DNA of 64,000 bases from an uncultured Chloroflexia bacterium (GTDB lineage Bacteria; Chloroflexota; UBA6077; JACCZL01), in the NCBI GenBank assembly GCA_963765765.1, contig CAVXYC010000032.1, positions 32,001 to 96,000 of the forward strand. The letters run 5' to 3'. The notes under the pieces are model-generated. The model was not told the DNA's origin and did not search any database. It worked only from the letters and a program-made list of their open reading frames with translations. The position numbers and the translations under genes are program-made. Below, piece after piece: positions 15,318-17,732 of this stretch (within the stretch, counting starts at the first letter, position 1; each line of letters begins with the position of its first letter).

Positions 15318-16598
15318 ATGTTACCGGTCCAGGACAATGAGCTCATCACGCGTGTGAGTCCAGGCACCCCCATGGGTGACTTGATGCGACGTTACTGGCA
15401 GCCTATTGCCGCGTCGGCGGAGCTCGACGACAGCCCCTTCCGCACCAAGGAAGTCAAGATCATGGGCGAGGAGCTCGTCCTCTATAAGGACCGGAGCGGC
15501 ACCCTTGGACTCATTGAGCGATATTGCTCGCACCGCCGAGTGAACCTCGCTATCGGTGTGGTCGAAGATGACGGCATCCGTTGTCAGTACCACGGCTGGA
15601 AATTCAACGAGACAGGTAAATGCGTCGAGCAGCCTTTCGAGGACACGATGCATCCCGAGGCGGCATTCCGCTCCAAGTGCAATCTGTCCGGCTATCCGGT
15701 CAAAGAGCTGGCCGGTCTGGTCTGGGCCTACCTCGGTCCAACACCGGCACCTGAGCTACCCAACTGGGGGCCGCTGGTGTGGGGCGAGACGGTGCACGAT
15801 ATCTGCATCACCAATCTCCACTGCAACTGGCTCCAGTGCCAGGAGAATTCGCTGGATCCGGTCCACACCGAGTGGCTCCATGGCTACTTCGCTCGATACT
15901 TCACCGAGATCATGGAAGGCCAGGCGCCGACCTGGACCAATCGCAGCAAGCCCCACCAGAAGGTCGGGTTCGATGTGTTCGACTACGGCATCATCAAACG
16001 ACGTGTCTCGCTGGGTGATGGTCCGGACAACGACGACTGGAATATCGGTCACCCGATTCTTTTCCCGAACATTCTCCTGGTGGGCAGCCAGTATCAGGCC
16101 ACGATGCAGTTCCGTGTGCCCGTGGACGATGAGAACACGCTGCACATCTCGCTGTACACCTGGCGTGCCGCGCCCGGTATGACCGCGCCCGAGCAGCCGA
16201 ATGTGCCGTACCGCCACATCTCACTGCGAGATGACTCCGGTCAGTGGAACCTCAGGAACACCTTCAACCAGGACTACATGGCCTGGGAGACGCAAGGCAC
16301 TATCGCCAAGCGACACCTCGAGAAGCTGGGGGAGTCGGACCGCGGCATCATCCTGTTCCGTCAGCTCTTGAAGGATCAGATCCAGAAGATGCAAAACGGC
16401 GAGCCGCTCATGAACGAGTTCCGCGATCCCGCTCAGAATGTCTGCCTGGAGCCGCCGCTGGAGAAGATCAAGTTCAGCAACCGTGAAGGTCCCAGGAGCT
16501 ACATCCCGGGTGAAGTTGGTTACAGCCGCGACGGGAAGCTCATCGAAGAGGTTTTGAAGACCTGGAGCAGCCCGGCGAAGGAGCTCGTGACCGCTTAG
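15318..16598 (+). CDS. Rieske non-heme iron oxygenase alpha subunit (phthalate 4,5-dioxygenase/LigX-like)
   Basis: CSHR...CQYHGW Rieske motif; ENSLDPVHTEWLH iron site; GGAGG RBS. Confidence 0.92.
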   Translation: MLPVQDNELITRVSPGTPMGDLMRRYWQPIAASAELDDSPFRTKEVKIMGEELVLYKDRSGTLGLIERYCSHRRVNLAIGVVEDDGIRCQYHGWKFNETGKCVEQPFEDTMHPEAAFRSKCNLSGYPVKELAGLVWAYLGPTPAPELPNWGPLVWGETVHDICITNLHCNWLQCQENSLDPVHTEWLHGYFARYFTEIMEGQAPTWTNRSKPHQKVGFDVFDYGIIKRRVSLGDGPDNDDWNIGHPILFPNILLVGSQYQATMQFRVPVDDENTLHISLYTWRAAPGMTAPEQPNVPYRHISLRDDSGQWNLRNTFNQDYMAWETQGTIAKRHLEKLGESDRGIILFRQLLKDQIQKMQNGEPLMNEFRDPAQNVCLEPPLEKIKFSNREGPRSYIPGEVGYSRDGKLIEEVLKTWSSPAKELVTA

Positions 16599-16610
16599 AG
16601 TTGATTCATC

Positions 16611-16822
16611 GCCTCAGATAGCGACGCTACTGAGGGGACCATGGGATTAGAACCGCCCCAAGGGCCTTCCTGCAGGAGATTGAGTTCCTGCGGGAAGGCT
16701 CTTGGGGCGGTTCATTGGAACGAGAGACTGGGACCGCCGACATCCTGTCGGCCCGGCCCCTGAGGGCCGCCTCGCAGGTTTCCGGGACGCGCACAGGGCC
16801 CAGGTCATCTCCCCTGGGCCTG
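16611..16822 (+). ncRNA. Structured intergenic element (candidate ncRNA or 3' UTR)
   Basis: 28-bp stem 16650-16713 with two G-U pairs on the + strand, then a four-way junction 16728-16785 and a hairpin 16796-16821. Confidence 0.4.
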
Positions 16823-16850
16823 AGTCATTGTTGCGTGGTGGCCGTTCTTA

Positions 16851-17270
16851 TCAGTCGCTGTCAGTAGTGATCTCGATGTTCACGGTGGTCGCGACCGCGA
16901 CCGCACGATAGAGCGGTCAAACGGATTGCCAGTGCTGAACGAGCGCCTCGGCTTGCACGGCATTCGGTCCGTCCATGCGGAAGCGCACGTCGATGCGCAG
17001 GAAATCCGCCGTGTTCTGAGCCGAGCGGACGCCGTCGATCTCCACCTCGACGTGCTGCAGGGGCACCTGCCGTTGGCGCGCCGCTCCGTTCACCACATTG
17101 ACACCGCAGGACGAGATGCCGGCCAGAAATGCTTCACCTGAGGTCACAGCCTCGGCCGGACCGCTGGAGGAATCGATGACGAAGTGATTCGCTCGGGCGC
17201 TATTGAGCGTCCGTCCTAACGTGTCTGTGTTGACAGATTGGACAGAGTCGACTTTCAGATCATCGGGCAT
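16851..17270 (-). CDS. OsmC-family protein, probable selenoprotein (UGA at 16917-16919)
   Basis: EAFLAGISSCG first Cys; the frame continues HWQSV-UGA-PLYRAVAVATTVNIEITTDSD, with UGA at the conserved CP position. Confidence 0.8.
16887..16902 (-). promoter_or_regulatory. Bacterial SECIS-like hairpin
   Basis: GGTCGC-GGTC-GCGACC; loop begins with GG, 20 nt after the UGA. Confidence 0.65.
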
Positions 17271-17282
17271 GCGGATCGCCTC

Positions 17283-17732
17283 CTAGGGTGTATGGCGTCG
17301 GTCTTCGTCGCGACGCTCTTCTGTTTCGTCCGGGCGGTGGTAATCGTCCTCCAGACGGTAGGTCGTACCGACCTCAGGCGTGGACGCCTCGAAAATGACG
17401 GCGTCCGCATCCGGGGCGGCGCACAGCCGGTGACGTTGGCCAATGGCCACGGAGTAGCCCACATGCGGCTCCATCACCACGTCATGAAGCTTGCCATCGG
17501 GCCCTTCGAGCACTAGGATGCCTTTTCCATCGATAAGCGTCTGGGTCTCGGTTTTGGCATCGTGCAGCTGCAGGCTCAACCGATGTCCGGCCTTCACGTG
17601 AATCAACTTCGATGTGTACGGAGCGTCCTCCGGTGAGAGCAGCACCTCATGTCCCCATGGCTTCTCCACGCGACGTGCGCCGGGCAGAAGCGAGAACGCG
17701 GTCGGATCATAAGTAGGCGGCTGCTCTGGCAT
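17283..17732 (-). CDS. Cupin-domain protein (mannose-6-phosphate isomerase-like)
   Basis: RVEKPWGHE, RLSLQLHDAKTET, QRHRL, FEASTPE, RLEDDY. Confidence 0.85.
   Translation of the reverse strand: MPEQPPTYDPTAFSLLPGARRVEKPWGHEVLLSPEDAPYTSKLIHVKAGHRLSLQLHDAKTETQTLIDGKGILVLEGPDGKLHDVVMEPHVGYSVAIGQRHRLCAAPDADAVIFEASTPEVGTTYRLEDDYHRPDETEERRDEDRRHTP

Follow-up and report, generated by a model that had tools for sequence, protein, structure and literature searches.

Does an in-frame UGA end a gene of the OsmC fold, or is it read through as selenocysteine (Sec)? This question is raised by a gene on the minus strand (17270..16851) of a 64,000-nucleotide (nt) stretch of DNA from an uncultured Chloroflexia bacterium (assembly GCA_963765765.1, contig CAVXYC010000032.1, positions 32,001 to 96,000), here called the window. 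The in-frame TGA is codon 118 (16919..16917). The called open reading frame (ORF; 17270..16917, minus strand) stops there, giving 117 amino acids (aa) with the C-terminus HWQSV, and the public entry for this product also has 117 aa. A preliminary description made from the sequence had stated that the frame goes on for 21 codons beyond HWQSV-TGA, and this was seen on the minus strand: with the TGA read as U, 21 further sense codons follow (PLYRAVAVATTVNIEITTDSD), and the frame closes at a TGA (16853..16851) with a TAA directly after it (16850..16848). We predict from the sequence, with a probability of about 0.9, that the gene is intact and encodes a 139-residue thiol (selenol) peroxidase of the OsmC/Ohr fold, with UGA codon 118 decoded as Sec, and that a real gene cut short by databases at the internal TGA has been mis-annotated as a truncated OsmC.

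The read-through protein of 139 aa scored 52.5 bits (cut-off 27.5) against the Pfam OsmC model (PF02566) and covered it completely (positions 1-100 of 100), in agreement with the earlier proposal that the extension completes the OsmC C-terminus. An AlphaFold2 model built from a 27-sequence alignment had a mean predicted local distance difference test score (pLDDT) of 90.7. Residues 119-125 complete a helix and residues 129-137 form the last strand in this model, with residues 119-137 at pLDDT 90-97. As modelled, the 117-residue product would be without part of the last helix and without the last strand of the OsmC fold.

To place the TGA among relatives, we examined protein and genome collections. 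A protein database search gave 124 homologues at an expect value (E) <= 0.001 among 270 candidates, and 120 of these were listed. Identities among the listed homologues go as low as 39%, and their source names include OsmC family protein from Chloroflexota, Candidatus Rokuibacteriota and Candidatus Tectomicrobia metagenome-assembled genomes (MAGs). Among the 120 matches listed, 113 end exactly one residue before the Sec column and 5 end earlier, as anticipated from the claim that gene callers truncate the protein. One listed match (P0016, 145 aa) reads N-C-P-L-Y-R-A-V-A through the column, and one other continues differently. A search of 1.84 billion cluster-representative proteins yielded 271 matches at E <= 0.001 and 83 at E <= 1e-10. 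When the best 150 of the 271 representatives were sorted, 65 spanned the Sec column (Cys in 64, Gly in 1), 44 ended at the column or within two residues of it, 25 were shorter fragments and 16 diverged earlier. Some long proteins (P0121, with 714 aa, P0130, P0141, P0142, P0144 and others) carry two to four tandem stretches resembling the OsmC domain of the window protein.

Comparison of loci at the DNA level was confined to the phylum. A six-frame search of a 301-genome sample matched 33 genomes, from which 26 strong loci (L023-L048), including that of the window, were extracted. The 301-genome tallies take in five genomes flagged as unpublished (G227, G038, G145, G173 and G272); none of the loci examined comes from these. 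At the Sec column, TGA was seen in 19 loci and TGC or TGT in 7; together with the Cys of 64 of the 65 spanning representatives, this is the alternation of Cys and UGA for which an alignment of homologues had been suggested. In all 26 loci the TGA or Cys codon is followed by P/L-L/I-Y/F/W-R/K/G. Homologues ending at this position would have spoken against a selenoprotein; instead, the frame stayed open for at least 17 codons past the TGA in 19 of 19 TGA loci, and the downstream peptide was conserved. The conserved part comprises PLY(R/K/G)xVAVAT and the final strand, at overall identities of 29-82%. Sec forms continue x-V-A-V-A-T (once V-A-V-V-T), whereas Cys forms vary at that site (AVVKGT, TVAAAT, TLSKAV, TLASAT, TVAQAA, TVSGST). 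In the first four codons that follow the UGA, the share of non-consensus letters was 0.105, 0.105 and 0.395 at codon positions 1, 2 and 3, respectively, and this third-position-biased variation is as expected of coding sequence. A maximum-likelihood tree of 27 proteins (midpoint-rooted) placed Cys forms among Sec forms, with at least three Sec/Cys switches; because the tree was rooted only at its midpoint, we claim no direction for these switches. A related-locus search with the window protein alone gave two loci, both in Chloroflexota MAGs.

The perfect hairpin GGUCGC-GGUC-GCGACC noted in the preliminary description was found at 16902..16887 (minus strand), with 20 nt from the A of the UGA to the start of its loop, the distance previously given. 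The tool bSECISearch reportedly works with a UGA-to-loop distance of 16-37 nt. On its own, the hairpin is not beyond chance: perfect 6-base-pair (bp) hairpins with loops of 3-8 nt occur at 164 of the 64,000 starts in the window, whose G+C content is 61%, and about 0.055 (about 1 in 18) of stretches of 22 positions would hold one. The argument therefore depends on the relatives, and the hairpin is significant because it is conserved in 19 of 19 TGA forms and in 0 of 7 Cys forms.

This conservation was measured by aligning, without gaps, the 48 nt that begin at the UGA of each of the 19 TGA sequences; column numbers refer to that alignment. The stem (columns 18-23 with 28-33) was 100% paired in all 19, and RNAalifold gave the identical six pairs. 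Pair 21/30 was C-G in 14 sequences, U-A in 4 and U-G in 1, and pair 22/29 was G-C in 18 and G-U in 1; the changes at both pairs are synonymous and fall at the third position of Val or Ala codons. Thirteen double-sided changes were counted across the 19 Sec forms, and in 0 of 500 shuffles was the observed pairing or covariation score reached. Sliding the 3' partner by 1-3 columns reduced pairing to 29-75%. Sec forms had six of six pairs with local energies of -8.8 to -12.6 kcal/mol, whereas the seven Cys forms had 3-5 of six pairs and energies of -1.0 to -7.1 kcal/mol. The loop was GGUC or CGUG, with G25 and U26 invariant in the 19 TGA forms.

The columns flanking these two loop bases, 24 and 27 (window positions 16896 and 16893), showed G..C in 10 sequences, C..G in 9 and no other combination, at synonymous codon positions. 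At three or more points of the protein tree the combination switches: in L025 relative to its clade, between L046 and L039, and between the major clades. Columns 24 and 27 look like a seventh pair; a 2-nt G-U loop is impossible in a free hairpin, and the co-variation may reflect a SelB-bound shape.

In PMC1088965, the bacterial Sec insertion sequence (SECIS) is described as a stem-loop that closely follows the UGA on its 3' side and has a G in its small apical loop. The element found here is such a stem-loop: it spans nt 18-33, downstream of the UGA, with a stem of 6 bp and a small apical loop of 4 nt that contains G. It lies inside the coding region, and the peptide V-A-V-A-T is therefore fixed in the Sec forms.

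Genes for Sec synthesis and insertion were sought in the organism's own assembly (33 contigs, 6.49 Mb, 91.84% completeness, 6.85% contamination), as had been suggested along with the Sec proposal. That search was answered in part: selA, selB and selD were found, and a canonical selC was not. The selA gene (555 bits), the adjoining selB (a 651-aa open frame, 337 bits with neighbouring matches) and selD (382 bits; G000:C21:109702-110619, locus L018) each scored over the NCBIfam cut-off. The selD gene has one in-frame TGA, at G-A-G-U-A-C-K, with strong hairpins after it, so SelD would itself be a selenoprotein in this host. Among the 25 other genomes that have a strong OsmC locus of the present family, selA was present in 24; the miss, G052, is 84% complete and has a TGA form. 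As a discriminator, selA is weakly informative because it is also present in 231 of the 301 sampled genomes of the phylum.

Both redox residues of OsmC, in helix 1 and in the C-terminal C-P motif, are present in the read-through protein. The nearest solved proteins by sequence were Ohr chains (1n2f, E = 0.005). In the alignment, C55 corresponds to the first Cys of 1n2f, in its SAC motif, and U118 to the Cys of V-C-P, in line with the suggestion that Sec replaces the second, C-P-motif Cys. Seven positions (R20, D33, F48, C55, A64, R82 and U/C118) were invariant in 27 of 27 aligned sequences. Position 46 was E in 23, D in 3 and Q in 1, and U/C118 was followed by Pro in 26 of the 27.

In the Ohr of Corynebacterium glutamicum, Cys60 is peroxidatic and Cys124 resolves it to an intramolecular disulfide (available text of PMC4486171), and the accessible part of PMC8945050 has Ohr and OsmC re-reduced by lipoylated proteins. 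For decoding, SelB with Sec-tRNA(Sec) would bind the hairpin while the ribosome stands at the UGA, and Sec would be inserted. In the enzyme, by homology with Ohr, Cys55, flanked by Arg20 and Glu46, would attack an organic hydroperoxide and become a sulfenic acid. Sec118 would attack this sulfenic acid to give an intramolecular selenenylsulfide, which a dithiol donor, for example a lipoylated protein, would reduce. We lean towards this assignment, with Cys55 peroxidatic, Sec118 resolving and the dithiol donor re-reducing the pair; resolution of the Cys55 sulfenic acid by Sec118 appears most likely because the family keeps the Arg and Glu and has Sec at the resolving position. A reversal of roles, in which Sec118 would be the peroxide-attacking nucleophile and Cys55 would resolve, seems less likely.

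Several points weigh against decoding of the UGA as Sec or against the chemistry proposed for it. The stem has only 6 bp, and the fold of the 66 nt that follow the UGA is not more stable than the folds of shuffled sequences (z = -0.95). The minimum-energy fold of the lone RNA prefers a competing hairpin that contains the UGA; this competing hairpin is 84% paired across relatives, without compensatory change. No public soil contig bridges the TGA with at least 31 letters on each side, and the public contigs neither speak against the TGA nor confirm it firmly. RNA-library contigs cover only 17079-17399, a stretch made up of the 5' half of the OsmC gene and its junction with the upstream cupin gene, which is not proof of transcription. 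Sec incorporation and translation past the UGA are deduced from sequence comparison, and the peroxide-attacking residue of the two is assigned by homology to Ohr. Finally, no canonical tRNA-Sec was found in an assembly that is 91.84% complete.

The search for selC took several forms. With the Rfam tRNA-Sec family (150 of 835 candidates scored), the best match in the own genome was a tRNA-Ser(GCU) at 47.7 bits. No tRNA-Sec was detected by cmscan around selAB and selD, and a 13-base anticodon-arm pattern gave 145 mostly random matches in the own genome and no tRNA-Sec. A blastn search of the own genome with selC from five relatives gave no match, and the own-genome site matching the flank of the same-genus selC, the sole matching flank, has no tRNA. 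All five relatives tested, including one of the same genus, have a clear tRNA-Sec (65-73 bits), with which ARAGORN agrees. Because selA and selB are intact and selD is of the Sec type, we take the missing selC to be probably an assembly gap.

ARAGORN called a tRNA-SeC(tca) at G000:C15:168062-168147 (L054 663-748, minus strand), and this candidate for selC was rejected as a diverged copy of tRNA-Leu(UAA). It matched the generic Rfam tRNA family only (33 bits), has two acceptor-stem mismatches, a weak D-stem and the anticodon UCA, and is 90% identical to the genome's own tRNA-Leu(UAA) at C20:72131-72211. Its sole full-length match in the same-genus genome is an ordinary tRNA-Leu(UAA). No UCA copy of tRNA-Leu(UAA) was found among 20 relatives searched, and the look-alikes checked in four of them were ordinary tRNA-Leu(UAA); the tally of 21 genomes includes the unpublished genome G303. 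The UCA-anticodon copy may be a pseudo-tRNA or an opal-suppressor-like tRNA.

How else might this UGA be explained? It could be a genuine stop, the product being a 117-residue OsmC-like protein without the second Cys and the downstream similarity a relic. TGA is an ordinary stop elsewhere in the window, where it closes 16 of 32 stop-to-stop frames of at least 300 codons and is the commonest stop; selC was not found in the assembly; and the 113 of 120 listed homologues are called as ending exactly before the column. Those database ends are gene-caller output, however, and not evidence. The 19 TGA loci are all open, with a conserved peptide and strand at 29-82% identity and third-position-biased variation, the Cys forms read through the same column, and the 117-residue product would have an incomplete last helix and no last strand. 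We consider a genuine stop extremely unlikely.

Very unlikely, too, is decoding of the UGA as something other than Sec, either as Leu by the UCA copy of tRNA-Leu or as Cys by a recoded species resembling tRNA-Sec. The anticodon of the C15 gene, its 90% identity to tRNA-Leu(UAA) and the failure to find a canonical selC are compatible with such decoding, but that gene has the acceptor-stem mismatches and weak D-stem described above, and its same-genus counterpart is an ordinary tRNA-Leu(UAA). Leu at the position of a redox Cys would abolish the active site. The UGA and hairpin are kept in 19 genomes across the phylum, whereas simple suppression needs no SelB-type hairpin, and selA, selB and Sec-type selD are present. 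A change from TGC or TGT to TGA in this genome only, through sequencing or assembly error or in a recent pseudogene, is conceivable for a window taken from a draft assembly with 6.85% contamination. It is effectively refuted by the same TGA in 18 other independently assembled genomes, at identities down to 29%; in addition, a soil contig of another run spans 16785-16922 with no listed change at the TGA, ending 3 nt past it. Decoding of codon 118 as Sec is thus the reading that we retain.

The public call for the gene, like 113 of the 120 listed homologues, is a stump without an active-site residue. We tentatively propose, as a possibility somewhat short of even odds, a widespread unannotated selenoprotein family of soil Chloroflexota and, by database names, of Rokuibacteriota and Tectomicrobia MAGs, with selenium at the resolving position of an Ohr-type peroxidase and catalysis through a Cys-S-Se-Sec selenenylsulfide. 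If true, such peroxidases would allow a natural test of the contribution that Sec makes in a role other than that of first nucleophile. The natural Sec/Cys pairs, with Cys forms nested among Sec forms and at least three switches, are ready for asking what is gained by Sec at the resolving position. The 16-nt SECIS is very compact and shares its geometry with a second family of the phylum, and it could help to define SelB recognition in Chloroflexota.

Features of the OsmC/Ohr-type selenoprotein locus, in window coordinates
Feature	Position	Strand	Basis and remarks
Full coding sequence, predicted OsmC/Ohr-type selenoprotein	16854..17270	-	139 codons, Sec at codon 118; translation with TGA as U, Pfam, AlphaFold2, Foldseek
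Shine-Dalgarno sequence AGGAGG	17279..17284	-	8 nt before ATG; overlaps TAG stop of upstream cupin gene; sequence and ORF list
Cys55 codon, predicted first active-site Cys	17106..17108	-	Counterpart of the first (peroxidatic) Ohr Cys; invariant, 27 of 27 sequences
In-frame UGA, predicted Sec (U118)	16917..16919	-	Aligns with second, C-P-motif Cys; TGA in 19 loci, TGC/TGT in 7
SECIS-like hairpin	16887..16902	-	Stem GGUCGC/GCGACC of 6 bp, loop GGUC; stem starts 15 nt after UGA
Predicted true termination signal TGA-TAA	16848..16853	-	TAA abuts TGA
Perfect 8-bp hairpin (inverted repeat I3)	16797..16820	-	About 30 nt past predicted true stop; possible transcript end, without T-run
Upstream cupin-fold gene	17283..17732	-	149 aa; ORF list; MannoseP_isomer 23.4 bits against cut-off of 23.6 (weak)

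The cupin gene is translationally coupled to the selenoprotein gene. Within 1.5 kb on each side of the OsmC gene, the cupin neighbour was conserved in the same-genus genome only, and in three relatives at the order level (L045, L047 and L048) the gene immediately upstream, in the same orientation, was a homologue of a Rieske oxygenase. In the window, a Rieske [2Fe-2S] oxygenase of the LigXa/KshA-like type (15318..16598, plus strand) is the convergent neighbour of the OsmC gene. This suggests a possible functional link between the Rieske oxygenase and peroxide detoxification. The gap between the two convergent genes holds an inverted repeat (16650-16713) with 28-nt arms that are 93% complementary and 8 nt between them; it could act as a terminator in both directions or be a repeat element. 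A scan for consensus terminators called nothing downstream of the OsmC gene, the 8-bp hairpin included. Metagenomes from soil and rhizosphere contain the window region, at shares of 0.20-0.42.

How does this protein compare with known members of the OsmC fold? The window protein scored 25.4 bits against the Ohr model TIGR03561 (cut-off 88.85) and is therefore not an Ohr equivalog. Both active-site positions nevertheless align with those of Ohr (1n2f), and the Arg and Glu of Ohr have counterparts in R20 (27 of 27) and E46 (23 of 27). By analogy, the likely shared chemistry is hydroperoxide reduction through an intramolecular S-S bond, here S-Se, with re-reduction by lipoyl proteins (available portions of PMC4486171 and PMC8945050). 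Ohr has a resolving Cys where the window protein has the predicted Sec. Foldseek placed the AlphaFold2 model nearest to 1lql, 2onf, 2egt and 1ml8 (template modelling (TM) scores 0.82-0.85, probability 1.00), with Ohr and OsmC chains at TM 0.63-0.78; by this model, a third OsmC subfamily would be structurally nearer than Ohr or OsmC. The best structural matches include the YhfA and Mycoplasma pneumoniae MPN625 type (1ml8, 1lql). The YhfA class is described, in the accessible part of PMC8945050, as being without the Arg and Glu beside the peroxidatic Cys, whereas in the present family Arg20 is invariant and Glu46 is conserved.

In 2005, three sequences of OsmC-like selenoproteins from the Sargasso Sea, of COG1765 and with the motif UxxT, were described (Zhang, Fomenko and Gladyshev; PMC1088965), and the available portions of PMC2398784, PMC1976440, PMC9312934 and PMC13188914 repeat them as a single UxxT family. 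NCBIfam has one matching model, NF041052, 'OsmC-related (seleno)protein', with a cut-off of 95 bits. The window protein scored 18.5 bits against it, and no member over the cut-off was found in the own genome. With stumps in the annotation and a clade that NF041052 does not reach, the family is invisible in selenoproteome counts for soil bacteria. NF041052 was over the cut-off in 14 of the 301 sampled genomes, and 14 of the 15 over-cut-off matches carry one TGA; four genomes (G140, G050, G095 and G149) carry both NF041052 and the present family.

Full-text literature, with supplementary tables and subscription papers outside its scope, yielded no report of Sec at the second Cys of an OsmC-fold protein. 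The two families share the OsmC fold (PF02566), the standing of bacterial selenoproteins and a SECIS inside the coding region, and the SECIS geometry of NF041052 in this phylum, a GC stem of 5-6 bp from about nt 18 with G-U in the loop, is as in the present family. The difference lies in the active site. Seven NF041052 members with TGA (L094-L100, from G140, G203, G104, G050, G062, G208 and G200) read G-F/A-F-U-L-L-T and retain the second Cys (R-G-C-F/Y); the published family therefore has Sec at the first Cys, whereas the present family keeps the first Cys and has Sec at the second (U-P-L-Y). OsmC-like selenoproteins as such have been known since 2005; what differs here is Sec at the other active-site position. 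Because of this position, and because its clade lies beyond the reach of NF041052, we count the present family as a variant of the known OsmC-like selenoproteins.

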